Positions 478-31,667 of a DNA stretch of 42,879 bases are shown here, piece by piece (position 1 is the stretch's first letter; each line of letters starts with the position of its first letter). Source of the DNA: a virus; the IMG/VR virus record IMGVR_UViG_3300045988_132779, positions 1-42,879 of that record. One strand, written 5' to 3'. Made by a program: the position numbers and the translations under genes. The notes under the pieces are model-generated. The model did no database searches, was not told the origin of the DNA, and saw only the letters and a list, made by a program, of their open reading frames with translations.

Positions 478-499
478 TAACACATAAGAGGTGGACAAA

Positions 500-1333
500 A
501 TGCCAAACAAATCTGCAAATATTCTGGGCCCCGTAATTAAGGAACTAAGGAAGCAAAAGAAAATGACTCAGGCTGACCTTAGCAGAATTACCGGCATCGC
601 CCAAAACACTATTTCAAATCACGAAAATCAGAATAGAGCGCTTGATGAAAATTCCATTATTAAATACGCCAAGGCGCTGGGGGTAACTCCCCAAGCTCTA
701 TATGATGCAGCTATTGTTAAGAAATCAATTGACACTAAATCAATGGTGATCGATGTACGACAAACCGCAATTGACGAAATTAACGATGTTGTTAAAGAAC
801 TAGTAACGCCTCGCGTGCAAAAAGTTGCTTCATATGCCGAAAAGCAGCTCAATGAGCAGCAGAACCCCGATAACGTTGTCAGCTTAGATGAAGCGCGTGT
901 AGAACGTAATCTTGATGAGCCAGCGTTCAATGTTGAGGTTGATGGTATTGTGGCCGCTGGATATGGCGCCTTTAATGATGATCGCTATGAACCAATGGAC
1001 ACAGTTAAGATTCCAGACAGTGCCATTCCGTCTCACTACGATTACTGCTTTAAAGTTGTCGGTGACAGTATGTCTCCCTACTACGAGGATGGCGAATTTG
1101 TCTTTGTTCAGAAAACACAAGATGTTACTAACGGTATGATCGCTGTAGTTGATATTGATGACATGACATTCATTAAAAAGCTGATATTCGAACAAGATCG
1201 TTTGTGTCTTCGTTCATTGAATGATGATGTGGACGAAAAAACGGGTGAACGTATCTACCCAGACTTCTATGCTGATGAAACTGATACCATTGATGTTATC
1301 GGTAAGGTCGTTGGATCATATGCATTTAAATAA
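500..1333 (+). CDS. CI-like repressor: N-terminal XRE HTH plus C-terminal LexA/S24 autopeptidase domain
   Basis: HTH segment MTQADLSRITGIAQNTISNHEN. LexA-like cleavage motif VAAG, Ser motif GDSMSP, Lys in FIKKL. The ATG at 500 is preferred (GAGGTG 6 nt upstream) over the GTG at 491. Confidence 0.9.
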   Translation: MPNKSANILGPVIKELRKQKKMTQADLSRITGIAQNTISNHENQNRALDENSIIKYAKALGVTPQALYDAAIVKKSIDTKSMVIDVRQTAIDEINDVVKELVTPRVQKVASYAEKQLNEQQNPDNVVSLDEARVERNLDEPAFNVEVDGIVAAGYGAFNDDRYEPMDTVKIPDSAIPSHYDYCFKVVGDSMSPYYEDGEFVFVQKTQDVTNGMIAVVDIDDMTFIKKLIFEQDRLCLRSLNDDVDEKTGERIYPDFYADETDTIDVIGKVVGSYAFK

Positions 1334-1395
1334 ATAGCTAACCTACGTCCAAGCCCTGATCGACGTTAAAAGCTGGATTTTTATGGAGGGGAATA

Positions 1396-2073
1396 ATGAA
1401 ACTACTTGTCTTAATTGCCTTTTTGGGATCGCTCCTATTGGCTGCAATATTTGGCACATTGTCTATAGTTCAAAGAAAGGATCCGAGAAAACTAAAGCGG
1501 AACCTTATTATTACCGCATTGTCGGCGGTAGCATTTATTGCAATCTTTTTTTGGATTGGCACCTACTCGGGAGAAAGCAAGAGGTCAGCTGCGTCTAGTT
1601 CGTCTTCAAAAGCTGAATCGTCAAAGGTCGAGTCGTCACAAGATGATGATGACAGTTACGAAGACACTGATAGCGATGACTCTGATGATGAAGAATCATC
1701 AAGCACAGAAACATTCAACGCTGCTGACTACAACACTGGGATCACTTATGAACAGTTGGCACGGACTCCGGACGACTACAAGGGTAAGAACATCACTTTA
1801 ACAGGCGAAGTTATTCAAGTCGTTGAGGGTGACGATGAAACTGATTTGCGTGTTGCAGTTGATGGTAATTATGACAATGTAATTATGGTCGGTTATGATC
1901 CAGATATTATGAACGGCTCTCGCATTCTAGAAAATGACAAGATCACCTTCTATGCTGAAAGCTTGGGTACCACCACTTACAAATCTACCATAGGTGGCAA
2001 AATCACAGTTCCATTGGCTTTGGCCAAGAAGATAGATGACGCCGGAACCGCTCCCGACGACTATGGTGATTAG
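1396..2073 (+). CDS. Membrane-anchored protein (2 N-terminal TM helices, S/D/E-rich linker, ~120-aa C-terminal globular domain); candidate superinfection-exclusion or lysogenic-conversion protein
   Basis: Hydrophobic segments LLVLIAFLGSLLLAAIFGTL and IITALSAVAFIAIFFWIGTY. Acidic low-complexity linker. RBS GGAGG 6 nt upstream. Sits between cI and int. Confidence 0.7.
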   Translation: MKLLVLIAFLGSLLLAAIFGTLSIVQRKDPRKLKRNLIITALSAVAFIAIFFWIGTYSGESKRSAASSSSSKAESSKVESSQDDDDSYEDTDSDDSDDEESSSTETFNAADYNTGITYEQLARTPDDYKGKNITLTGEVIQVVEGDDETDLRVAVDGNYDNVIMVGYDPDIMNGSRILENDKITFYAESLGTTTYKSTIGGKITVPLALAKKIDDAGTAPDDYGD

Positions 2074-2157
2074 TCCCTTCCCCCACGCAAGCGGCGTCTC
2101 CGTGCAAGCCGGAGAGTGGGGCTTGTATCGCATACCAAATAAAGGATGTGAGTCATC

Positions 2158-2265
2158 ATGCTAAAAAAGATAGTTGCCATCTTACTCATTGTTTTGTTGG
2201 CTGGCGCAACAACCGCTTGCGCTAGTGACCAAGACGATGATCAAAATGTCGATCAGTTTAACTGA
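2158..2265 (+). CDS. 35-aa putative mini-lipoprotein (MLKKIVAILLIVLLAGATTAC/ASDQDDDQNVDQFN)
   Basis: Not in the ORF track (<60 aa). Has a K-rich n-region, a hydrophobic core and a lipobox-like TTAC. Intergenic position in the lysogeny arm. Confidence 0.45.
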   Translation: MLKKIVAILLIVLLAGATTACASDQDDDQNVDQFN

Positions 2266-2313
2266 GCGTTGGCGGGATACAAAAGCTTGGTATTTAAGAT
2301 AGGAGACAGCAAA

Positions 2314-2694
2314 ATGGATCGGCCAATAATTAATGCCATCTACTTCACGGAGAAAGACAAATCCAAACCGATGATGGTGCTCCCGTTAGATAGCACTAAA
2401 CTTCACATCGATATTCACGTTCAAGTCATTAATTTCACTTTAGATAAGCATACGTTAACTTTGTCCGTAAGCGATCAGAACGGAAACGTTATGCTCGAAG
2501 CTAGCCAGCAACCCATGGACGCCTCTTCATTGAAGGCAAGAGGAACATATGGCATTGTTGATGCAACTCTTTTCGTTGTATTTGACAAATTAGAGCTTAA
2601 GGGAGTGAATCGGCTAAGGTTTGATATATCCTTCGATAATGATGCTAAGGCTACTGCATATCTGTTTGTTTCACGAGGTGACAAGAATGATTGA
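2314..2694 (+). CDS. Hypothetical 126-aa protein (lysogeny-arm moron)
   Basis: ATG at 2314 is preceded by AGGAGA 7 nt upstream. No TM helix or signal peptide. No motif recognised. Confidence 0.6.
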   Translation: MDRPIINAIYFTEKDKSKPMMVLPLDSTKLHIDIHVQVINFTLDKHTLTLSVSDQNGNVMLEASQQPMDASSLKARGTYGIVDATLFVVFDKLELKGVNRLRFDISFDNDAKATAYLFVSRGDKND

Positions 2695-2839
2695 TGCCGG
2701 GATTAGCAAAGTTATCTTTAGAACTGATACAGAGATAAAACGATCCTCTTCTATAAGGGCATTCATCAAGGGATATAGGATTACTACGGCAACGGGTAAA
2801 AGCAAAACAGAGTATAATAAAACCAAGGAGGCGGATAAC

Positions 2840-3097
2840 ATGACAAATGAAAATACCGTGACTCAAGATCAATTAAAGTTTGCAGAGCAAGACGCTAATC
2901 ACAAGCTTGATATTATCAACATAAAGATTGACGCACTAACAAAATCGGTTAATGCAATTTCAATCAAAGCTGACGGACTCGATGAACTAAAAACTACTAC
3001 TGCTGTTTTATCTGAAAAAGAGTCGACAACACGGGCTTTGGCATGGGCCATTGTTGTTGCCATTGTTGGAGGCCTCATTAAGCTGATTCTTTTTTAG
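2840..3097 (+). CDS. 85-aa coiled-coil protein with a C-terminal TM anchor (XhlA-like architecture)
   Basis: GGAGG lies 8 nt before the ATG. C-terminal segment ALAWAIVVAIVGGLIKLILF is hydrophobic. TATAAT at 2813..2818 upstream and a terminator downstream. Confidence 0.65.
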   Translation: MTNENTVTQDQLKFAEQDANHKLDIINIKIDALTKSVNAISIKADGLDELKTTTAVLSEKESTTRALAWAIVVAIVGGLIKLILF

Positions 3098-3117
3098 TCA
3101 AGGCAAGGTTCATTTCA

Positions 3118-3145
3118 GGCTCACAGCAACGTGGGCTTTTGTTTT
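3118..3145 (+). terminator. Rho-independent terminator
   Basis: GGCUCAC-AGCAAC-GUGGGCU hairpin (one G.U pair) followed by UUUUGUUUU. Confidence 0.65.
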
Positions 3146-3194
3146 CTCTAACTTATTTTTTCACAACTCATTCTCCTTATAGGAGGTATCATCT

Positions 3195-3458
3195 ATGAAA
3201 ACAATTACAGTAATCTCTTATAAGTTTGGCGAAAAAAGCTGGAAAAACTTCGAAGGAGAACCTATCAAAAAATATGAGCACTCAGTTCTCCTAGACATTT
3301 CAAACACCGAAGTCTTCAGTGATAAAGAAAAAGCAGAACTAAATTACAAGATCGTTGTCCCCTTTTCTAGAATTAGAGAGAAACGATTCATCAAAGATAT
3401 TCCACTCAGTAACGTAAACGAGGCGCTTAACAAGAAAAAAGCAAGTAGGAGAAAGTAA
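3195..3458 (+). CDS. Hypothetical 87-aa protein with a basic C-terminus
   Basis: GGAGG RBS (taggaggtatcatctATG). No recognisable motif. Confidence 0.6.
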   Translation: MKTITVISYKFGEKSWKNFEGEPIKKYEHSVLLDISNTEVFSDKEKAELNYKIVVPFSRIREKRFIKDIPLSNVNEALNKKKASRRK

Positions 3459-3565
3459 CGACAAAAAGCGCCTACCCAAGCGAATGGGTAGACGCCTAAC
3501 AGAACGTGACTGCATGGTTAGGTGCAATAGCACCCGTCTGTATTGTAGCACAAGGAGGTGTAAAT

Positions 3566-4693
3566 GTGGCCAGTATTAGTAAGCGTGGCAAAAAATGGCA
3601 ATATCGTGTCTCTTACAAGGATAATGATGGAACACGCAAGTATGTCAACAAGGGTGGCTTCCCCTCAAAAAAGGCTGCTGATATAGCGGCAATCGAAGTC
3701 GAACGTCAGCATAATCGCGGTGCAAATTTGGATCTTAACAAGATAACGTTAATCGACTACTGGGACAAATGGATTGAGCTGTACAAATCTGGTAAGCATT
3801 CTCGTATCACCGAAGCCCGGTATAAAACAATTCGTAAACAGTTATTAGCCTACTGGGGCGAAAGCCGTGAACTAAAATCAATTTCAAAATCAGACTGGCA
3901 GGCATTTATCAATGAGTTTGGCAAAAAAAGGGCTAAAGATACAGTCAGCAAATTGAATGGCTATGTTCGCTCAATGGCTGATTCTGCCGTAGATGACCAA
4001 ATAATATATACTAACTTCACTCATAACGTTGTCCTCACTGGTAATGAGGGCCAAGCAGGAATCATCAAATATTTGCAAGTAAAGGATTTGCGCAAGCTCG
4101 TCAATTACTGCCTAGAATTTGCAGACTACGAGCATATTGCTTACTACATCATCGCAACCGGGGCACTGACCGGAGCTAGGTATTCTGAAGTTCTTGGGCT
4201 CACGTGGGATCATGTTGATCTTAAAAAGCGCGTTGTACACATTACCAGAACGTGGGATCACAGATATGGGAGCGGCTTTGCTGCTACTAAGAACAAATCA
4301 AGTGTACGTGACATCGACATCACGAGAGAACTTGCAGACTTGCTTTTACGTCTCAAGAAAGAACAGCAAGAGGTCTACCTTGCTCAGGGATATCGTGATA
4401 GCAAACAACTATTATTTCGCAGCATACGGCATAACATGCTATCAAGCACGGCAATTAATAAGGATCTAAGGACGATTCAGAAGACTCTCGACATTTCCCC
4501 CGCGATTACTTTCCATGGGCTTAGACACACTCACGTTTCCTATTTGATTGCCAATCACGTTGACATTAACTATATTTCAAAAAGACTTGGGCATGCCAAT
4601 ACAATGATCACTCAAAAAGTCTACGCTCATCTTCTTGAAGATCAAAGAAAAGAGCAGGTATCCCAGACGCTACAAGCACTTTCTAGACTTTAG
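3566..4693 (+). CDS. int: Tyrosine recombinase / phage integrase
   Basis: Catalytic motifs TGARYSEVLGLTW (Arg), HGLRHTH (H-x-x-R) and LGHANTMITQKVYAHL (Tyr). GTG start at 3566 with AAGGAGG 7 nt upstream; the longer track ORF has no RBS. Confidence 0.92.
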   Translation: MASISKRGKKWQYRVSYKDNDGTRKYVNKGGFPSKKAADIAAIEVERQHNRGANLDLNKITLIDYWDKWIELYKSGKHSRITEARYKTIRKQLLAYWGESRELKSISKSDWQAFINEFGKKRAKDTVSKLNGYVRSMADSAVDDQIIYTNFTHNVVLTGNEGQAGIIKYLQVKDLRKLVNYCLEFADYEHIAYYIIATGALTGARYSEVLGLTWDHVDLKKRVVHITRTWDHRYGSGFAATKNKSSVRDIDITRELADLLLRLKKEQQEVYLAQGYRDSKQLLFRSIRHNMLSSTAINKDLRTIQKTLDISPAITFHGLRHTHVSYLIANHVDINYISKRLGHANTMITQKVYAHLLEDQRKEQVSQTLQALSRL

Positions 4694-4890
4694 CTTGTGC
4701 ACATTTTGTGCACCGGAGGAAAAAAACAACCGAAAATAAAAGGAAACAAAAATCCCGAAATGCCTTTATACAAGCATTTCGGGAAGCTATGGAAAGCAAC
4801 TAGAGACAATAAAACGGAGAGTAAGTGCGAAAATAAACGTATATACAATAGTATTAAACCACATTTTGTGCATATTTTGTGCACAAAAAT
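4694..4890. other. Probable attP region with integrase arm-type repeats
   Basis: Convergent intergenic region next to int. (A)TTTTGTGCA(C) occurs as direct repeats at 4695..4702, 4703..4713, 4863..4872 and 4874..4884, flanking ~150 bp. The core position is not determinable without the host attB. Confidence 0.55.
4754..4783 (-). terminator. Rho-independent terminator (minus orientation)
   Basis: Perfect 10-bp stem CCCGAAATGC/GCATTTCGGG with a 10-nt loop. On the minus strand it is followed by AUUUUUGUUUCCUUUU. Confidence 0.65.
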
Positions 4891-4920
4891 AAGCCTCCCG
4901 CCATTGCTGGTAGGAGGCTT
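4882..4920 (-). terminator. Rho-independent terminator of the protease operon
   Basis: 8-bp stem AAGCCTCC/GGAGGCTT. On the minus strand it is followed by AUUUUUGUG. Confidence 0.65.
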
Positions 4921-4938
4921 ACTAATAACACATATAGC

Positions 4939-5085
4939 CTAATATTGAACGATACGGACAACACATTCTTGTGCCGAACCTTGGTTTGTGGGTTCAGCGT
5001 TAGGTTGATTATATTGATTTAACTGTTCATTTGTTTTATTTACTTTATCGAAAAGGGCGTTGATTTGTTCTATTGTGTATGTCAT
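4939..5085 (-). CDS. Unannotated 48-aa Q/N-rich protein translationally coupled to the SDH protease gene
   Basis: MTYTIEQINALFDKVNKTNEQLNQYNQPNAEPTNQGSAQECVVRIVQY. Its ATG overlaps the protease stop (ATGA). GGAGGA lies 4 nt upstream. Below the 60-aa track cutoff. Confidence 0.55.
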   Translation of the reverse strand: MTYTIEQINALFDKVNKTNEQLNQYNQPNAEPTNQGSAQECVVRIVQY

Positions 5086-5990
5086 GGGTTCCTCCTACTT
5101 TGGTCACTGACAATATACGAAGATGATTTGCTTTCAATTAATTTTGAAACATTTGTCTGTTGCAAAGTAATCATAATGGAGTGGTGGAGACTCAAAACTG
5201 AATTTTGCAAGTTCTGATCGTCTTCGAGAGCATTAACTTTTAGACCGATTTCACGAGCCAAATCAATATTGAAGTGTCGAGCATGAGCCTTTGAACGAGT
5301 GTGTTCATTGAGCCTTTTCACTATAGCCTTTACCTTTTCATCTGAATGTGGGTCATCGGCGAACATAACAGACGAAAGCCAGCTTTCTATTAGCTCTCCC
5401 GATAATTGAACGGCATCTTGAGCGAACTTGACGTATGCGGCCGGATATTTTCCTAAAAGTAACGACCAATATTGAAGGTTGTTGGCGTTTTCTTGTAGAT
5501 CATGGTACGCTTCATCAAATTCAGAAATAATATTATAGGCAGGTAACCCCCCTATCTGAGGATCAACCGGTCCCAGGCTTGAATGCTTCCCCATCCAAAT
5601 CTTTTTAGAAGCACACGAAATCATAGTGCCTGCAGACATTGCCATGTGAGGCACGATAACCTCAATATTATCATAAAACATACTTCTAAGATATGAAACG
5701 ATTGATTCTGCAGCATTAGGATCTCCACCTGGTGTATGCAAAACTAAAGAAAGTCCCTTTTGGCGATCTAATCCATTGATGGAACTCATAAACCCTTCCA
5801 TGTCGCTATCATTGATATCAATCTGATTTTTTCGTCCTTGTTGCCAACCAGAGTAATAACAGATTATGGTTCTATTAGTTTGTTTTTCAAGGTCTTCGAG
5901 ATATTTATGCCTAAGAGAGTCTAATCGAGACGGATAAGACTTAAACTCATCGAAAATCGATGACCAACTACCACCGCCTTGATGCTGCAT
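5082..5990 (-). CDS. SDH-family (ClpP/SppA-fold) serine protease, 302 aa
   Basis: Motifs LVLHTPGGDPNAAESI, VPHMAMSAGTMI and LGPVDPQIGG are typical of the serine dehydrogenase proteinase family (PF01972-like). ATG at 5990 with GGGGGGA 7 nt upstream; the 35-aa upstream extension has no RBS. Confidence 0.75.
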   Translation of the reverse strand: MQHQGGGSWSSIFDEFKSYPSRLDSLRHKYLEDLEKQTNRTIICYYSGWQQGRKNQIDINDSDMEGFMSSINGLDRQKGLSLVLHTPGGDPNAAESIVSYLRSMFYDNIEVIVPHMAMSAGTMISCASKKIWMGKHSSLGPVDPQIGGLPAYNIISEFDEAYHDLQENANNLQYWSLLLGKYPAAYVKFAQDAVQLSGELIESWLSSVMFADDPHSDEKVKAIVKRLNEHTRSKAHARHFNIDLAREIGLKVNALEDDQNLQNSVLSLHHSIMITLQQTNVSKLIESKSSSYIVSDQSRRNP

Positions 5991-6180
5991 TGCTTCATCC
6001 CCCCATGTTAATCTATAAGCTTCATGTGATGTGTACGTTTTCCAATCAAATTTGTCATGCACCCATCGCCTACATATTACCAGTGGCAATAACAATATTC
6101 AATTAAAACTGATTAAAACAAGTTAAAACATATTTAAAAAGTAAAAAATTGCAGTGCATTCTTGACAATTAATTTACAAC

Positions 6181-6234
6181 AAAAAGCCCTCCACTTCACA
6201 CACCCGCATTAGCGAGCAGAGGGCCTTTTTGTTA
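6181..6234 (-). terminator. Compound hairpin terminator between yafQ and the protease operon (U-tracts on both strands)
   Basis: Outer stem GCCCTC/GAGGGC, flanked by A5 on one side and T5 on the other. The inner CUCGC/GCGGG stem pairs only on the minus-strand RNA. Confidence 0.5.
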
Positions 6235-6279
6235 CCTGATGTACAGGCTTTTTTGTGAGCGAAACATCACAGCAAATTG

Positions 6280-6564
6280 CTAAATACCAAGCAAGTTGTG
6301 ATGCCTTCCCACTGCAACGACAGTTAAAATCAATTCCTCACCGTCTATGCTGTAGATGACCAGCAAATTTGGACGCAAATGAAATTCTCTGTGATTAATC
6401 CAATTGCCGCTTAAGCTGTGATCGTGATAGCGCTTGGGCAGTTCTTTCCCAACACATAAAGAGTCTAGACACTTTTCCAAGCAATCCTTGTCTTCGCTGC
6501 TTAAATTTATCTTTTTGAGCTGCTTTTTGGCCGAATGCGTGTACTTCAACTTTAGCAAACTCAC
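6280..6564 (-). CDS. yafQ: Type II toxin, YafQ/RelE-family mRNA interferase
   Basis: LPKRYHDHSLSGNWINHREFHLRPNLLVIYSIDGEELILTVVAVGRHHNL matches the YafQ-family pattern (DH.L.G.w...RE.H..pd.LLiY). 4-nt overlap with the upstream antitoxin gene. Confidence 0.8.
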   Translation of the reverse strand: MSLLKLKYTHSAKKQLKKINLSSEDKDCLEKCLDSLCVGKELPKRYHDHSLSGNWINHREFHLRPNLLVIYSIDGEELILTVVAVGRHHNLLGI

Positions 6565-6812
6565 TTGAGCATATCCTCAAGCATATCGTGTGCATTGTCG
6601 AAGGACTTAGATACTCGTCCGTGTTTTTCGTCTTCGATCCCAGACTCTAGATCACCGGTAGGCGTGAATGGAAACTTTCCTTGTTTGTTAAATTCGACCA
6701 AAAACATGTTGATTGCAGTGGAGAGCGTGACTCCCATACTTTCCGCTATGTGTTTGGCTTGTCTCTTTGTGTCCGTGTTTGTCCGTACGTTAATAGTCGC
6801 TCCTTTATCCAT
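6561..6812 (-). CDS. dinJ: Type II antitoxin, RelB/DinJ family
   Basis: INVRTNTDTKRQAKHIAESMGVTLSTAINMFLVEFNKQGKFPF is a DinJ-like ribbon-helix-helix N-terminus. ATG at 6812 with GAGGTG 6 nt upstream. Confidence 0.8.
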   Translation of the reverse strand: MDKGATINVRTNTDTKRQAKHIAESMGVTLSTAINMFLVEFNKQGKFPFTPTGDLESGIEDEKHGRVSKSFDNAHDMLEDMLK

Positions 6813-6865
6813 TGATATCACCTCACGTTGTATTGTAACACGTTATACACACAACGCAACGCTTT

Positions 6866-8050
6866 TTACTTGATATATAAACTTTCACCAGGGTAGATCA
6901 GGCTGTAAATTGACTTGCCGTTGTTGGCCGCTAACGTGTACATACTGATGCCATACCTGCTGGCAATGCTCCAGAAGCTGTCACCAGAGAGGACCGTATA
7001 ATACGTGCGGCTTACCGGTGAGGTGTATCCAGACGAACGCGAGCCATAGCTCTCCCCACCATTCACCCCCAAGGCAACATAATGATACTGGCCGGAGTAG
7101 CTGAGATAACGTGCCCAAACATATGTGCCACGGATATACACGTGATCATAAATCACACTTTCACCGGGTGCATAGCTGCCAACTGCTGTGTATCCTGTAC
7201 CAGCACCAGTGCGGATGTTAACAGTCGTGGAAGGCTTGAACACACCCGCTTGCGCATAGTCGGTATCACTGGCTGCATTCGATTTCGCTGGTTGACTTGG
7301 TGCCGGTGTTACAGGCACCGACGGAGTTGCTGGCTGCTTCGAGTATCCATTATCGGTCACACCAAGCAGATCAATGTTACCATCGAGGCCTTGCGACAGC
7401 CCAAATGCGCTCGTGTACTGCCAAATAGCTACCCCATCCATACTCGGAAAATAACCGTAGTCTGGTTTGGTAGTTGGTAGATAATCACGGTAAGCAGCAA
7501 TCCAAAGGCTGTTAGGAAATTCTTTCAGAATACGCTGATAATCGACATGTGCCAACGTATATGGCTTGTAACTGTAATACATGGGCGTGTAGCCTTCTGA
7601 ACGAATGCGCCGCATGCCAGCTAAAATTGCATCCGTATTAGCTGCCATATTGCCAGAAGCACCATCTTCGTAGTCCAAAGCAACGATGCTTCCCTTTGGT
7701 GTCTGCGCTTTGATACGAGGCATATAACGGTCAAGTGCTTCTAATCCCAACTGGCTACTTCCACCAACGCCATACCAGATGTAGCTATGCACACGTTTTC
7801 CTGCCGCCTTGGCACTAGCAATTTGGCTATCATACGTCCACTGATCGATGTACGTACCACCGTAAGTTCCGCCAATCTGAGCTATGACGAACTTGTCTTG
7901 ATCTGTTCCATATCGTCCACTTGCTCCCTGATACTTCGCCCAATCAGGTCCCTGATCACCCTTTGCTGCATTGACATGCGATGGCAAGGCAAAAGAAATA
8001 GCCGCCAAGAAGGCGACTACCAAGGTGATGAGTTTAGTTTTAAATTTCAT
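6866..8050 (-). CDS. Endolysin: signal peptide + GH25 muramidase + SH3-like region + C-terminal LysM
   Basis: The N-terminus MKFKTKLITLVVAFLAAISFALPSHVNAAKG is Sec-signal-like. GH25-like core (DWAKYQG...DYEDG). C-terminal LysM YTVLSGDSFWSIASRYGISMYTLAANNG. AAGGAGG lies 5 nt before the ATG at 8050. Confidence 0.88.
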   Translation of the reverse strand: MKFKTKLITLVVAFLAAISFALPSHVNAAKGDQGPDWAKYQGASGRYGTDQDKFVIAQIGGTYGGTYIDQWTYDSQIASAKAAGKRVHSYIWYGVGGSSQLGLEALDRYMPRIKAQTPKGSIVALDYEDGASGNMAANTDAILAGMRRIRSEGYTPMYYSYKPYTLAHVDYQRILKEFPNSLWIAAYRDYLPTTKPDYGYFPSMDGVAIWQYTSAFGLSQGLDGNIDLLGVTDNGYSKQPATPSVPVTPAPSQPAKSNAASDTDYAQAGVFKPSTTVNIRTGAGTGYTAVGSYAPGESVIYDHVYIRGTYVWARYLSYSGQYHYVALGVNGGESYGSRSSGYTSPVSRTYYTVLSGDSFWSIASRYGISMYTLAANNGKSIYSLIYPGESLYIK

Positions 8051-8060
8051 GGTGCCCTCC

Positions 8061-8474
8061 TTATTGCTGTGGAGCAAAAGATGCCGGAGCTGACTCCGCC
8101 GGTGCTGCAGAAGACGTCTCTGGAACCACTTCACTAGCAGCAGTTACCTGGTCAGCCTCTTTATCCGCTTGCAGCGCCTTAATCTGGTCCTCTAGCGCCT
8201 TGATCTTAGCTGCCTTGGTGGTAATGAGTGCCGGGTAAGCTAACGCCTGCTGGCTATCACTGACGCCCTCTGTGGTTGGGTCAACGGCTACCCCAACGAT
8301 GGTCAACAGCGCAAATACTGCATTGACCACTGCAGTGAGTTCTTTACCCAAACTAGCAAAGTCCCAGTTGTAACCGAAGACTGCCGCCACCGTTTGAATC
8401 ACCAACAAAGAAGCTGGCACAATGGCCAGCCAGAATTTGACGCTTAATACTCGTACTTTCCAATTAATCTTCAT
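8061..8474 (-). CDS. Holin (phi LC3 / Phage_holin_1-like)
   Basis: MKINWKVRVLSVKFWLAIVPASLLVIQTVAAVFG plus VAVDPTTEGVSDSQQALAY match this holin family. Lies immediately upstream of the lysin. Confidence 0.8.
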   Translation of the reverse strand: MKINWKVRVLSVKFWLAIVPASLLVIQTVAAVFGYNWDFASLGKELTAVVNAVFALLTIVGVAVDPTTEGVSDSQQALAYPALITTKAAKIKALEDQIKALQADKEADQVTAASEVVPETSSAAPAESAPASFAPQQ

Positions 8475-27833: not shown

Positions 27834-28370
27834 TTACACCGCCAACTCAAAAGAGAAGCCACGGTTGTGTTTGAGCTTGCCACGAAGGCACTCGGATACA
27901 TGGCTCTGGTTTAGTCCAAGAAGCTCCGAGGCTTTCTTTGCGCTACCAAAAAAATAGTGATGTCCTGAGCTGGTCACTACATAGACTGGACACTCGTTCG
28001 CTTTCGCTACGCGCTTGTTGCGGGTACCGTACATGTTGTTATAAAGTGCTGAGCACCATTCAAGATTTGATAACACATTGTTTGTCTTGTTTTCGTCTTT
28101 GTGGTTGACCTGCGGAAAATTGTCGGGGTTATCCAAGAACGCCGTAGCCACGAGACGGTGGATAAGCTTATATTCAATGTCTCCGTCTCGACATAGAGCA
28201 ATCTTACGATACCCCCGGCCGCTTGAGCCACCAACGAGCACCGTTCCTTTTATGCGGTGCCCTTGTGCGTCTTCGCGATCAAGGCTTCTTACTCTTCCCA
28301 TATTGCTAACTTGGTAGATGCCTTCAAATCCTTCAATGTCTTTCCAAATCTCATTCTCTTTTTTAAACAT
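27834..28370 (-). CDS. HNH homing endonuclease (NUMOD4 + HNH_3 + C-terminal HTH)
   Basis: NUMOD4 motif WKDIEGFEGIYQVSNMGRVRS. HNH_3 motif HRLVATAFLDNPDNFPQVNHKDENKTNNVLSNLEW. Overlaps the upstream gene by 8 nt. Confidence 0.85.
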   Translation of the reverse strand: MFKKENEIWKDIEGFEGIYQVSNMGRVRSLDREDAQGHRIKGTVLVGGSSGRGYRKIALCRDGDIEYKLIHRLVATAFLDNPDNFPQVNHKDENKTNNVLSNLEWCSALYNNMYGTRNKRVAKANECPVYVVTSSGHHYFFGSAKKASELLGLNQSHVSECLRGKLKHNRGFSFELAV

Positions 28371-29511
28371 AGTAAATCGCCCTCGTATCATGGTCAGAAT
28401 ATTCAATTAGTTCAAATGTCTTATGAGCAACAACTCCGAGATCATCTGTCCACTTATCCGTAGGTTTTCTCGTAGACATCTGCCTTTGAACGAATCCACC
28501 TAAATCCTTGCTCATTTCACTGTGCATGTGACCCGTTATCAATTCGCGGTTCTGTGCCGTGCCTAACATGAAGCCGAACTCATCGAGGTATTTTGCAAGG
28601 TAGTTGTTCTTACCTTTATCACCATGAGTGGCGCCAATGAAGTTATGGCCTAACATTGTGCCTTTGTAATGCTTCAGTGATATATCCCAAGTGATGTTCG
28701 GCTGGTTGCTGTAGGCACGTTTCAATAGACGCGCAAACATATATCCAACTGACGGGTCGTGATTACCTGGTGCATACATGACCTCACACTCATTGGCATT
28801 CTTAATAATCGCTTCAATCAGTGTCTCGAAGTATTGTTCCATTTCGTTCACAGTCTCGCCTAGGTCAGTTGTTTCGAGCTGTGTGCCCTTTGCTGTGGTT
28901 GAGTTGATATTGTCCACGTGAGCAAGATCGCCGCCCAGAATGAGCAATATTTTGGCGTAGTGGCCGCGTTGAATGATTTCTAGTTGCCGTTTAAGAGATT
29001 CCGCATAGACGTCGAATGTGTGACCGTTGAAATGCGTGTCAAATGCAGGAATGACCAGATAGCGATCTGATTCCACAAAAATAGGAGCCTTAGCTTGGTA
29101 TGGCTCCTTGTGTGTGATGATGTCATTCATCAATGATTCGTATTGTTCTGCTTCGACTAACGGCCTAATTTGTATCTTGCTTTGATACAACGTTGCTTCA
29201 GGCGTTTGCTTCCAGAAGTTGCTTGTAGCACGTACAAGCTCCCACTTGGTGTAATCATACCCGTGAGCTTCCAGAACCTCTCTAGGCGTCATTTTGTGGC
29301 CCCTGACAACCTTTAGAATGGTTTCACTGGACTGCGTACCGTCTGAATCGTATTCATTCTTCAGTGGCTTCTGAAATTCGATACCAAGCCTTTTCGCTTT
29401 ACCTTGAAGCGCATCATAGCTAATTCCGAGCTTGTCGGCCGTTTCTCGTCTAGTAAAGCCTTCAGAGGCGAGCTTCCTAATGTCACCGATCTGTTCATCT
29501 GTCCATTGCAT
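28363..29511 (-). CDS. Fusion protein: N-terminal HTH domain + calcineurin-like metallophosphoesterase
   Basis: HTH segment FTRRETADKLGISYDALQGKAKRLG. Phosphoesterase motifs PAFDTHFNG (DxH), LGGDLAH (GDxxH), PGNHD (GNHD) and TGHMH (GHxH). Confidence 0.8.
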   Translation of the reverse strand: MQWTDEQIGDIRKLASEGFTRRETADKLGISYDALQGKAKRLGIEFQKPLKNEYDSDGTQSSETILKVVRGHKMTPREVLEAHGYDYTKWELVRATSNFWKQTPEATLYQSKIQIRPLVEAEQYESLMNDIITHKEPYQAKAPIFVESDRYLVIPAFDTHFNGHTFDVYAESLKRQLEIIQRGHYAKILLILGGDLAHVDNINSTTAKGTQLETTDLGETVNEMEQYFETLIEAIIKNANECEVMYAPGNHDPSVGYMFARLLKRAYSNQPNITWDISLKHYKGTMLGHNFIGATHGDKGKNNYLAKYLDEFGFMLGTAQNRELITGHMHSEMSKDLGGFVQRQMSTRKPTDKWTDDLGVVAHKTFELIEYSDHDTRAIYYV

Positions 29512-29538
29512 CTACTCGCCTCCTAAAATATAATGTCC

Positions 29539-29564
29539 GTGAGCAGTTTGATGACGCTGCTCAC
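29539..29564. other. Hairpin GTGAGCAG-10 nt-CTGCTCAC in the leader of the HTH-phosphoesterase gene
   Basis: Perfect 8-bp stem. The same 8-mer pair recurs at 29774..29817. Confidence 0.5.
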
Positions 29565-29568
29565 ATTC

Positions 29569-29679
29569 TCATGAAGAACTTCCCGAGTTCTTAAGCCCTC
29601 GGATTAGGCCCCGAAAGCTTTTTTGTTGCTTAAAAAATTTCGATGAGTTAGAATTAAATTGTTCCCAACAGATACTCAT
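29569..29679 (-). CDS. Possible 36-aa basic peptide (MSICWEQFNSNSSKFFKQQKSFRGLIRGLKNSGSSS)
   Basis: AAGGAG lies 5 nt before the ATG. Otherwise unsupported, and it sits in a structured intergenic region. Confidence 0.3.
   Translation of the reverse strand: MSICWEQFNSNSSKFFKQQKSFRGLIRGLKNSGSSS
29626..29654 (+). promoter_or_regulatory. Plus-strand sigma-A-type promoter TTGCTT-17-TAGAAT (antisense to all neighbouring genes)
   Basis: Hexamers at 29626..29631 and 29649..29654 with an exact 17-nt spacer. Confidence 0.5.
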
Positions 29680-29738
29680 TTTCACTCCTTTGTAATACCC
29701 TTTCTTTAGGCTCTCGGCCCCCAACCGAGGGCTATTTT
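29661..29738 (+). ncRNA. Candidate antisense sRNA 1 (~75 nt), ending at a + strand hairpin/U-tract
   Basis: Starts downstream of the promoter above. The hairpin 29709..29733 (GGCUCUCGG/CCGAGGGCU) contains G.U pairs that become A.C mismatches on the minus-strand RNA. Followed by AUUUU. Confidence 0.4.
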
Positions 29739-29758
29739 AGTATCTTCTATAAGGAATG

Positions 29759-29767
29759 TGCTAATAT
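29759..29767 (+). promoter_or_regulatory. Plus-strand extended -10 promoter element (TGcTAATAT)
   Basis: TG at 29759-60 and TAATAT at 29762..29767. No good -35 element. Confidence 0.4.
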
Positions 29768-29773
29768 ATATAT

Positions 29774-29879
29774 GTGAGCAGTGGCCTTTCTCCTCCAAGT
29801 CAACCGCTGCTGCTCACACAAGTATTCCGTTTTTTCATTCTTTTGGCCCTTGGACTGGTCTCTGAGGGCCTTTTTGTTG
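29774..29879 (+). ncRNA. Candidate sRNA 2 (~105 nt): 5' hairpin with a CUCCUCC loop, U-rich linker, strong terminator
   Basis: 5' stem GUGAGCAG/CUGCUCAC (29774..29817). The loop contains CCUUUCUCCUCCAAG. The terminator GGCCCUUGGA-CUGGUC-UCUGAGGGCC (29845..29870) is followed by UUUUUGUUG. Its two G.U pairs exist only in the + strand RNA. Confidence 0.45.
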
Positions 29880-29880
29880 C

Positions 29881-29914
29881 ACAAAAATAGCACCTCACCG
29901 TTTGGCGGAGTGCT
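29881..29914 (-). terminator. Rho-independent terminator of the 286-aa orphan gene
   Basis: On the minus-strand RNA: AGCACUCCGCC-AAAC-GGUGAGGUGCU (10 of 11 positions pair, including G.U) followed by AUUUUUGU. Confidence 0.6.
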
Positions 29915-29945
29915 TTAGTAAATAAAAAGATGCCAAAGCGTCATA

Positions 29946-30806
29946 TTAGCTCTCTTGGTTTGTAGCACTAGATTTCGAAACGGCTGCCTTAAGCATATTC
30001 CCAGCATCGGTCGGACGTTCAGCATAAATTAACTCTGAAGGATTATTGGGATTAGCGTATGGTGGATTCAGCGTTCCCGAAATAAATTCAGCTAACTTAT
30101 TTGATTCTAAATCAACGATTGCCATCTGGATGCTTGTCTTCTCAATGTTAGAAAAAACTGGCACTTTGCTAAATGCGGTTGCTACCCATCCAGTATTGTC
30201 TCCCTGCACTCTACCATCTACAGCAATGAATGCTTTTGGTCCTGGAACTAACGGCCAATGGTCTGAATTCCGAAGCAGAGTTAGAGCTAGCGGAGAACTT
30301 CTGTCTATTAAATTCAAAATGCTCTTGTTCTTAGAAAAAGTGCTTCCCCAATCTTTTTCATTTGCAAGATTACCCAGATAATCAGACATAATATCCAACA
30401 TATCATCATCTGATGGAGCATCTGACAGTAGGGAGACTATTTTCGAATAGATACTCAGTCCGTACGGATTTGTGAGGAGAGAACTCAACCTGTGAAGGCC
30501 CTGCTCTTGATCATCGGTCTTTTGTAGATATTCTGCCAAAAGCAAAGTCTTCTTCATGTCATCCAAACGGTCTTTTAAATGATCCCCCGTATCCACAAGA
30601 TCAAGGATCAGATCTCCCCATTTGCCGTTTAAGACGTCTACCGCCAGCTGCTTTCCTTTCGACTTGGCAGTATCGACCACTGCTGACCTCACATCCTTAC
30701 TATCAAGCTTTTTCTGCTCTATTCTCTTATCCAAGCTCATTTTCTCAGCATGCAAAAGATATTCTGGATGCTCAATCATGGCCCGAATTTCCGCTTTCTT
30801 GTCCAT
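29946..30806 (-). CDS. Orphan 286-aa cytoplasmic protein (moron between ArpU and the late-region leader); function unknown
   Basis: Clear ORF with GAGGTGA 6 nt before the ATG. Charged helical N-terminal half and a beta-rich C-terminal half. Has its own terminator. No motif I can name with certainty. Confidence 0.7.
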   Translation of the reverse strand: MDKKAEIRAMIEHPEYLLHAEKMSLDKRIEQKKLDSKDVRSAVVDTAKSKGKQLAVDVLNGKWGDLILDLVDTGDHLKDRLDDMKKTLLLAEYLQKTDDQEQGLHRLSSLLTNPYGLSIYSKIVSLLSDAPSDDDMLDIMSDYLGNLANEKDWGSTFSKNKSILNLIDRSSPLALTLLRNSDHWPLVPGPKAFIAVDGRVQGDNTGWVATAFSKVPVFSNIEKTSIQMAIVDLESNKLAEFISGTLNPPYANPNNPSELIYAERPTDAGNMLKAAVSKSSATNQES

Positions 30807-30926
30807 TTCGTATCACCTCACAAAAATAGTACCCCAGCATGAACTGGAATACTACATTGAGGTGATTAAGTGAGCACTGCGCAGCCGTTTTCCGCCGGCC
30901 AATCTGGTGCACGTTTGATAGCGCAA

Positions 30927-30991
30927 TGTGGCATGCGGGAATCGAACCCGCCTGACTATCACGGTCAGTCCTCATTGCCACGCCTTGCCAC
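30927..30991 (-). other. Non-canonical tRNA-like element (acceptor + T-arm + one extra arm; no D-arm, no variable region)
   Basis: The minus strand reads GTGGCAA-GGC-GTGGCAA-TGAGGA-CTGAC-CGTGATA-GTCAG-GCGGG-TTCGATT-CCCGC-ATGCCAC-A. The T-arm with the GTTCGATTC loop is perfect. A 6-bp acceptor pairing is possible with either GTGGCAA copy. Confidence 0.5.
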
Positions 30992-31090
30992 AGCTTTATC
31001 ATCACTGAGGCTCGGAGGAAAAATGCGGTGTCTCAGGTTTCTCACCTTTGGCACAATACCATAATAAGACGTAAAAACAGTTGAAAGGTC

Positions 31091-31519
31091 TCACAAAGGT
31101 CTCATCTCGATTTCAACCAATGGACAAATCTCGGCGAATGCAATTAGCGCTTCTCGTTTTGTTCGATAATACTGGGCTTTTGATAAAAAAAGCTTGTCCA
31201 TTATTTGCTTGTCACTATATCGTTTGGTTAAGTAAGAGCTTGTTAGTATAATCCGATGATTCTCTGATTCCAGAGATTCGATAGCGCCTTCACAGCACGC
31301 TATATAGTACAGCTCGTCAGCGTGCGATACGAGCTTGTCCTCGGCTTTATTTCCATAGCTGGGTGACTTGGGCATGCCGTCCATCACGGGGCTTCTGAGC
31401 GCTATTTTGGTGCGTTGAGCGAGCCGCTTGTGATGCCAGTAGTTCCCCAAGACCTCTTTGGCGTTTTCAATCGTTTTGTCATGATCAATTGGGCTAAAAT
31501 ATCTCGTTGCTCGCACCAC
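31091..31519 (-). CDS. ArpU-family late transcriptional regulator
   Basis: LRSPVMDGMPKSPSYGNKAEDKL ... IILTSSYLTKRYSDKQIMDKLFLSKAQYYRTKREALIAFAE matches the ArpU family pattern. The GTG at 31519 (AAGGAG 8 nt upstream) is preferred over the GTG at 31528, which overlaps the SD. Confidence 0.8.
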   Translation of the reverse strand: MVRATRYFSPIDHDKTIENAKEVLGNYWHHKRLAQRTKIALRSPVMDGMPKSPSYGNKAEDKLVSHADELYYIACCEGAIESLESENHRIILTSSYLTKRYSDKQIMDKLFLSKAQYYRTKREALIAFAEICPLVEIEMRPL

Positions 31520-31667
31520 TGCGTCCACTCCTTATGGTATAATTTGTCTGGGCTTGTAGGATAAGCGTGCCGTGATGGTGCGCTTTTGTTATACTGTTTT
31601 CGGAGGCATTTCAATATTATAAAATCAATTAAAAATGTTGTTGTCTACAGTGCCTCCAGCGTGCCCC

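Follow-up and report, generated by a model that had tools for sequence, protein, structure and literature searches.

The window analyzed here, the whole 42,879-nucleotide (nt) stretch of the IMG/VR virus record IMGVR_UViG_3300045988_132779, is a complete viral record with terminal repeats, and DNA similarity places it in the A2 / J-1 / PL-1 / BH1 group of temperate Lacticaseibacillus (casei, paracasei, rhamnosus) phages. Nearly all of its genes lie on the minus strand. The subject of this study is C2, a plus-strand cassette in the 434-nt gap between an open reading frame (ORF) of 286 amino acids (aa) and the gene for a GcrA-like helix-turn-helix (HTH) and calcineurin-like phosphoesterase protein, hereafter the phosphoesterase gene. 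C2 is the middle one of three tandem plus-strand small RNA (sRNA) genes, C1, C2 and C3, which face the lytic genes and share their strand with the repressor and integrase genes (Table 1). A sequence-only reading of the window had set the cassette in an otherwise all-minus region, but C1 and C3 flank it on the plus strand. The homology, conservation and folding described below make it very probable that C2 is a real sRNA gene.

Table 1. Features of the C2 locus and other window genes referred to in the text (SD, Shine-Dalgarno sequence; TSS, transcription start site)
Feature	Position	Strand	Remarks
CI-like repressor gene	491-1333	+	
Integrase gene	3506-4693	+	
Two HNH endonuclease genes, TerS, TerL		-	
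GcrA-like HTH + calcineurin-like (metallo)phosphoesterase gene	28363-29511	-	Pfam PF07750, PF00149; first lytic-strand gene downstream of the sRNA array
C1 sRNA gene	29506-29625	+	-35 TTGCAT 29506-11, 17 nt, TATAAT 29529-34; TSS ~29541; counterpart of sLCB577.3-
36-codon open frame	29569-29679	-	SD AAGGAG 29691-29686 (plus-strand CTCCTT 29685-29690), five bases, ATG 29679-29677
C2 -35, TTGCTT	29626-29631	+	directly after the T-run of the upstream terminator (TTTTTTGTTGCTT)
C2 -10, TAGAAT	29649-29654	+	17 nt past the -35
Predicted C2 sRNA, ~78 nt	29661-29738	+	48-nt unstructured, G-poor, CU-rich body and terminator hairpin; orthologue of sLCB577.2- by sequence
Most conserved single-stranded stretch, AUACUCAUUUUCACUCCU	29672-29689	+	18 nt, anti-SD-like; complement of SD and ATG on the other strand
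Intrinsic terminator hairpin of C2	29709-29733	+	9 bp, arms GGCTCTCGG/CCGAGGGCT, 7-nt loop CCCCCAA, then AUUUUA 29734-29739
C3 sRNA gene	29759-29875	+	extended -10 TGCTAATAT 29759-67; TSS ~G29774; counterpart of sLCB577.1-
Terminator-like hairpin + AUUUUU	29883-29914 (hairpin 29914-29889)	-	downstream of the 286-aa ORF; distal border of the variable slot
286-aa ORF	29946-30806	-	
ArpU/DUF1492 late regulator gene	31091-31528	-	

The letters and coordinates of the C2 promoter, TTGCTT-17-TAGAAT, are as the sequence-only reading gave them. Its description as near-consensus was too generous: the hexamers agree with the consensus at 8 of 12 positions (3/6 and 5/6), a promoter scan of the window did not list it, and motifs of its quality occur in the window at chance frequency (5 observed versus 6.1 +/- 2.0 in shuffles). 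The terminator hairpin was read correctly as well. A terminator scan lists it with nine pairs and the tail ATTTTAG, and six of the nine pairs are G-C, so that a GC-rich stem is followed by a U tract, as in rho-independent terminators. On the plus strand, the RNA folds into an open 48-nt region and the hairpin (-14.9 kcal/mol). Pairs 1 and 4 of the stem are G.U and turn into A.C on the minus strand, whose minimum free energy fold does not form the hairpin; the fold is thus strand-specific, as had been claimed. Rfam gave zero window matches at the gathering threshold and only chance-level matches in 29450-29960 at E values up to 10.

A counterpart of C2 in L. casei BL23

Small RNAs of L. casei BL23 have been cataloged from strand-specific libraries with defined 5′ and 3′ ends, prepared from uninduced cultures in de Man, Rogosa and Sharpe (MRS) medium (Mickute et al., 2021, BMC Biol 19:129; PMC8220740). 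One of them, sLCB577.2-, is 79 nt long, has TTGCTT as its -35 element, AGCTAAAAT as its -10 box, a TSS 6 nt after that box and a predicted terminator; it was recovered in all three libraries at 1,057-8,123 counts per million (CPM) and was positive on Northern blots (PMC8220740). Two RNAs of the same strand accompany it: sLCB577.3- (86 nt, -35 TTGCAT, -10 AAATATAAT) and sLCB577.1- (101 nt, -10 TGCTATTAT, ~10,000 CPM). A fourth, sLCB577+, is an 85-nt species of the opposite strand found at ~120 CPM, with no promoter or terminator listed (PMC8220740). Table S6 of that study places the sLCB577 RNAs between a CsbD gene and the gene overlapped by sLCB577.3-, downstream of arpU and an integrase gene; the paper assigns no function to sLCB577.2- and discusses neither its phage context nor its antisense relation (PMC8220740). 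A literature search on late transcription of phage A2 and on sRNAs of Lacticaseibacillus prophages returned nothing on function.

The sLCB577 locus of BL23 is a prophage with the layout of BH1 and C3.1, and the window and its relatives have the same gene order and strand relation as the BL23 arpU gene, CsbD slot, three sRNAs and overlapped gene. The Northern probe for sLCB577.2- matches the cassette copy of phage JNU_P10 (L005) at 28 of 28 positions, in the sense of the window plus strand, and this copy measures exactly 79 nt when counted from the G 7 nt after the -10 box through its U-run. Because of the probe match and this span, C2 is, by sequence, the orthologue of sLCB577.2-. The two are alike in the -35 hexamer, the 17-nt spacing, length, terminator hairpin, neighbors and strand relations. 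They differ in that the window copy is only about 86% identical to the BL23-type copy (86% over 120 nt to the JNU_P10 cassette), has TAGAAT where BL23 has TAAAAT (one base), carries the two G.U pairs in its stem and ends in AUUUUA rather than UUUUUU. Also unlike the BL23 prophage, the window phage has no CsbD gene. The start of C2 at G29661 is set by this homology, as the BL23 RNA has 6 nt between its -10 box and its TSS. The short plus-strand RNA of about 75 nt that had been predicted from the letters thus has a 79-nt homologue detected in three libraries and by Northern blot, whose 5′ end, 7 nt after the -10, corresponds to G29661. The array is made in lysogens without induction in the case of the BL23 homologues, and by homology it would be made in lysogens of the window phage too.

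A second BL23 prophage, which carries arpU and tRNA-Ile, has a comparable set at 1,265,637-1,265,810, with sLCB1266.7- and sLCB1266.9- opposite the lytic genes and sLCB1266+ on the lytic strand (PMC8220740, Table S6). These RNAs lie at a position equivalent to that of C1-C3 in the window.

Conservation of the cassette and of the frame opposite

We compared the region around C2 in phage records, 80 viral contigs and 15 bacterial contigs encoding the phosphoesterase gene. A full-length C2 cassette was present in 38 of the first 88 loci, in 23 distinct 205-nt versions that comprise 18 distinct RNA versions and are 79-100% identical. The copy of phage R23.9 is 100% identical to that of the window across the cassette. 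All 23 aligned variants have TTGC(T/C)T as the -35 and TA(G/A)AAT as the -10 element (23/23), and the distance between the two is fixed at 17 nt, while the spacer sequence itself changes at four to six positions. The sequence-only reading had made its case depend on conservation in related phages, and each of the 18 RNA variants does retain both hexamers, the spacing and the hairpin. Within the RNA, AUACUCAUUUUCACUCCU is nearly invariant and the positions flanking it vary.

The variation within the hairpin is informative about the strand that is used. All 207 cells of the stem alignment (100%) pair on the plus strand: pair 1 is G.U or A-U, pair 4 is U.G, U-A or A-U, and pair 7 is C-G or U.G. 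The A-U at pair 4 in L033 is a compensatory change, the single compensatory pair seen, and each wobble state becomes a mismatch if the sequence is read on the minus strand. A shuffle control of the hairpin was modest (28/500), with only nine pairs and related sequences to work with. In most diverged variants the stem is perfect and is followed by UUUUUU; the window type, with two G.U pairs and AUUUUA, is the weaker version. Between collinear phages the cassette comes and goes cleanly. It is present in JNU_P10 and in the window and absent in iLp84 and P7.1, which lack exactly the segment that runs from the preceding hairpin's T-run to that of the cassette itself; C2 therefore behaves as a self-contained promoter-to-terminator unit.

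A covariance model built from the 18 variants scores the window C2 at 105.6 bits, as the sole strong match in the window. Other copies lie in L. zeae, in two prophages, and in one further genome; in total, three of 151 sampled Lactobacillaceae genomes carry matches. All inspected matches lie in the same slot next to the phosphoesterase gene. As judged from these matches, the C2 RNA family is narrow and phage-bound. The model also finds a 99-bit copy in a contig labelled as part of an uncultured Prevotella metagenome-assembled genome (L098), which is probably a mis-binned Lacticaseibacillus phage contig. In L098 the start of the phosphoesterase gene is conserved and the remainder of the gene is only 37% identical. 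Three 35-bit matches in another Lactobacillaceae genome (G054) were rejected as family members, as they belong to a chromosomal repeat of another kind, which has no more than the hairpin loop and a CU-rich run in common with C2. The three chromosomal copies of this element (L107 1501-1575, L108 1501-1574 and L109 1501-1568) have a GCACACG/CGUGUGC hairpin with the same CCCCCAA loop and a U-run; their opposite strand carries a conserved GGGAGGAAGAAAATGAAA and, about 45 nt on, a second GGGAGGAAG, and the short ORFs there are not conserved between copies.

The C2 RNA covers the SD and start codon of the 36-codon minus-strand frame with full complementarity, as had been pointed out, and this layout had been likened to type I toxin-antitoxin modules, in which case the 36-aa peptide would be a toxin and C2 the RNA that blocks its translation. 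Prophages often carry type I modules, and in those known from Firmicutes prophages (such as txpA/RatA, bsrG/SR4, and Lpt/RNAII in L. rhamnosus) a small RNA likewise lies antisense to the site where translation of a short ORF begins. The best-kept part of the frame is moreover its SD and ATG, which coincide with the most conserved stretch of the C2 RNA. In contrast to such toxins, the 36-aa ORF shows no purifying selection (pN/pS, the ratio of nonsynonymous to synonymous polymorphism, is 0.85-1.7 among variants); within its first 21 codons, nine residues differ at ~80% DNA identity. Its start codon has changed to ACG in L054 and to GTG in L087, and variants range from 29 to more than 40 aa in length and end in three unrelated C-termini. 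The peptide, polar and basic in composition, has no hydrophobic or membrane-spanning stretch and gave no Pfam match, and no convincing promoter was found on the minus strand upstream of 29691. Given the pN/pS values, the loss of the start codon and the composition of the peptide, we rejected the toxin-antitoxin interpretation as highly improbable. The frame probably does not encode a functional peptide; we regard it as a by-product.

The slot and its other units

C1 and C3 are promoter-to-terminator units as well. The -35 of C1 overlaps the start codon of the phosphoesterase gene, and its RNA begins with a 5′ hairpin (GTGAGCAG/CTGCTCAC, 29539-64) and ends with a terminator at 29594-29619 whose T-run extends to 29625. 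The C3 RNA (-36.6 kcal/mol, z -4.2) has a 12-bp 5′ hairpin with a CU-rich loop and a strong terminator at 29845-29870 followed by UUUUU. C1 and C3 are paralogous, with identical hairpin arms (GTGAGCAGT / GCTGCTCACA) and terminators that are 74% alike over 42 nt, including a terminal TTTTTGTTGC. The -35 element of each unit (TTGC..) is formed by the bases after the T-run of the preceding terminator.

The 83 distinct versions of the slot, measured from the start of the phosphoesterase gene to the lytic-strand hairpin at its distal border, range from 24 nt to more than 900 nt and hold 0-5 sRNA units. Cassette-bearing versions have one to five plus-strand terminators and zero lytic-strand ones. 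Some slots add a plus-strand CsbD gene or a further mini-cassette. The CsbD-family moron of BH1 (L002, 2029-2328) and C3.1 (L006, 1729-1947) has its own promoter and terminator and is flanked by a duplicated junction, TTTTTTGTTGCAC; the extra mini-cassette of R23.9 (L001, 1968-2075) is ~100 nt long and has an extended -10 (TGTTATACT) and a terminator. Like phage morons, C2 is a self-contained promoter-to-terminator unit that some collinear phages have and others lack; it is encoded on the same strand as the lysogeny genes, and the CsbD moron occupies the same slot. C2 differs from such morons in that its cargo is a non-coding RNA and in that the units are stacked head to tail, with the -35 borrowed from post-terminator bases.

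About a dozen phages have an empty slot of 24-26 nt and still possess the phosphoesterase gene. In these (e.g., L089 1440-1500), the SD of that gene lies ~14 nt after the lytic-strand terminator hairpin, so that lytic transcription seems to reach the gene by read-through; the phosphoesterase gene thus seems to depend on read-through or antitermination. The hairpin at 29889-29914 is kept in A2, iLp84, P7.1 and others. A second minus-strand hairpin, at 29929-29944, is clean in A2 and degenerate in the window.

We also considered whether the lytic-strand leader is the functional molecule, with its hairpins, SD/AUG and short ORFs controlling the phosphoesterase gene and the plus-strand RNAs being by-products or, in the window phage, decaying remnants. 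In three different module types, the lytic strand has a hairpin with an SD-ATG after it, and the lytic-strand fragment sLCB577+ exists in BL23. Moreover, the window-lineage terminator variants of C1 pair as G.U on the minus strand where they are mismatched on the plus strand, and the window-type tail of C2 makes a weak terminator. However, BL23 contains 10-100 times more of the plus-strand RNAs, whose promoters and terminators have been mapped, than of the lytic-strand fragment. All T-runs stand behind the hairpins on the plus strand only, and the variation in the C2 hairpin fits the plus strand only. Retention of the phosphoesterase gene in phages without slot content and the lack of conservation of the upstream ORFs, in length as in sequence, likewise speak against a function of the leader, and we consider it improbable, though not as strongly so as a toxin-antitoxin module.

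Possible functions of C2 and the array

Short cis-antisense RNAs are known from other temperate phages, for example sar of phage P22 and oop of phage lambda. Both are RNAs of 70-80 nt with a constitutive-type promoter of their own and an intrinsic terminator, and they are transcribed opposite to a transcript of the lytic direction; sar, like C2, has complementarity to a ribosome-binding site. Judged by homology to the mapped BL23 RNA and by gene orientation, C2 too is a short RNA that has a promoter and a terminator to itself and faces a lytic transcript. It differs from sar and oop in several respects: there is no sequence or Rfam relationship, the ORF covered by C2 is not a conserved gene, C2 is one unit of a modular tandem array (0-5), and a regulatory effect of C2 is only proposed here.

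The role that we favor, tentatively and at somewhat less than even odds, is that of a cis-antisense lock or insulator on lytic read-through into the packaging region. The housekeeping-type promoter would start the RNA at about G29661 and the intrinsic terminator would end it at ~78 nt. The RNA would then pair over its full length with any lytic-strand transcript reading through the terminator toward the packaging region, cover the SD/AUG-like site and expose the duplex to processing. Together with the convergent promoters, C1-C3 would prevent expression of the nuclease and terminase genes in the prophage or postpone it after induction. In the window, a read-through transcript would have to cross 370 nt occupied by three antisense RNAs and three convergent promoters; this arrangement and the apparent dependence on read-through are the reasons why we favor an antisense lock or insulator. 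That the covariance model matches this slot only also fits an action in cis. With JNU_P10 as a stand-in for BL23 (chromosome positions 576,000-576,300), the 5′ end of sLCB577+ maps inside the stretch paired with sLCB577.2-, which is compatible with duplex-guided processing, although only a hint of it.

Several observations weigh against this proposal. The C2 promoter motif by itself is no evidence, given its chance frequency in the window; what counts is its conservation and the mapped homologue, and the evidence for expression comes from the BL23 homologues only. The U tract of the window-type terminator, AUUUUA, is weak compared with the UUUUUU of most diverged variants. The C1 terminator stem of the window lineage has two adjacent A.C mismatches on the plus strand, which are G.U on the minus strand, so that the strand asymmetry of wobble pairs does not hold throughout the array. 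In the window phage, transcription of C1 may continue into C2; other lineages have a perfect C1 terminator stem with a compensatory T-A/C-G exchange. Inspection of the slot by eye for a lytic-strand promoter gave poor candidates only, such as TTAGCA-19-TAAAAT, none of them conserved between module types. The slot also holds the unrelated CsbD moron, and the position of C2 may therefore reflect a recombination hot spot instead of a function. Finally, the 18-nt CU-rich stretch is nearly invariant, though a cis-antisense RNA needs no sequence conservation; such invariance would be explained at least as well by a seed acting in trans or by an SD/AUG on the other strand that has to be kept.

A trans-acting RNA is accordingly a close rival of the cis lock. 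In this scenario, C2 would be a riboregulator of lysogenic conversion whose CU-rich, anti-SD-like stretch pairs with the SD regions of host or phage mRNAs, in the manner of C-rich Firmicutes sRNAs, and its location in the slot would be incidental. The unstructured, G-poor body of 48 nt and the near-invariant 18-nt stretch between variable flanks are what such an RNA would be expected to have. The C1, C2 and C3 RNAs all expose UCCUC/CUCC/UCCC motifs, one of them in the hairpin loop of C3, with no ORF opposite; the RNA is abundant in uninduced lysogens (BL23), and the slot also bears a protein moron, CsbD. On the other hand, the search for targets offered little. When the C1, C2 and C3 bodies were compared by RNAduplex with all 50-nt windows of both phage strands, only the cis sites stood out; the best non-cis duplexes reached z values of about -4 to -5 (best ~-4.5), unremarkable among 8,566 windows. 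A search of five genomes for the complement of the 18-nt stretch with up to two mismatches found the RNA's own loci and one site with two mismatches, and the four Lacticaseibacillus genomes have no extended complementary site beyond the RNA's own locus. With one mismatch allowed, a 15-nt pattern hit a small number of SD-like sites, among them AAGGAGTGATAATGA in two species; this is not clearly more than SD-rich gene starts would lead one to expect. The conserved stretch is explained equally well by the SD/AUG on the other strand, and the family is narrow and always found in the same slot. On balance, we regard action in trans as rather unlikely.

More speculatively, the whole tandem array of 0-5 units might be a dedicated antisense lock that insulates the nuclease and terminase genes in the lysogen and times the packaging genes after induction, with cassettes gained and lost by recombination at the terminator/-35 junction (T-run then GTTGC); alternatively, it might be a set of anti-SD sRNAs that reprogram host translation. 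This broader proposal is rather unlikely as well, and we give it slightly less credence than action of C2 in trans.

An RNA of the C2 type was already published as an orphan sRNA of BL23 (PMC8220740). What our analysis adds is the orthology test, the covariation and strand analysis, the modularity of the cassette, the census of the slot and the rejection of the small ORF as a gene. Our findings indicate that an abundant sRNA of orphan function, detected experimentally in a species used as a probiotic and in dairying, is phage-borne, and that it is a unit of a modular array right before the packaging region of A2/J-1-type phages. Antisense and small-RNA control has been little studied in Gram-positive temperate phages compared with lambda and P22, and for three orphan BL23 sRNAs the lock proposed here is a concrete hypothesis that can be tested. 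The array may also be relevant to the stability of prophages, and to their spontaneous induction, in industrial Lacticaseibacillus strains.

Two further observations concern the 284-nt gap between the ArpU gene and the 286-aa ORF (30807-31090). Just before the ORF, a 13-bp minus-strand hairpin (30826-30855) is followed by UUUUGUG, and at the equivalent place BL23 has a terminated RNA derived from a 5′ untranslated region, sLCB574.4+ (PMC8220740). At ~30926-31010 on the minus strand lies a tRNA-like remnant with a perfect T-arm, GCGGGAATCGAACCCGC, in which ARAGORN and Rfam call no tRNA; at the equivalent position, the relatives JNU_P10 and iLp84 and the BL23 prophage carry tRNA genes, including tRNA-Ile.

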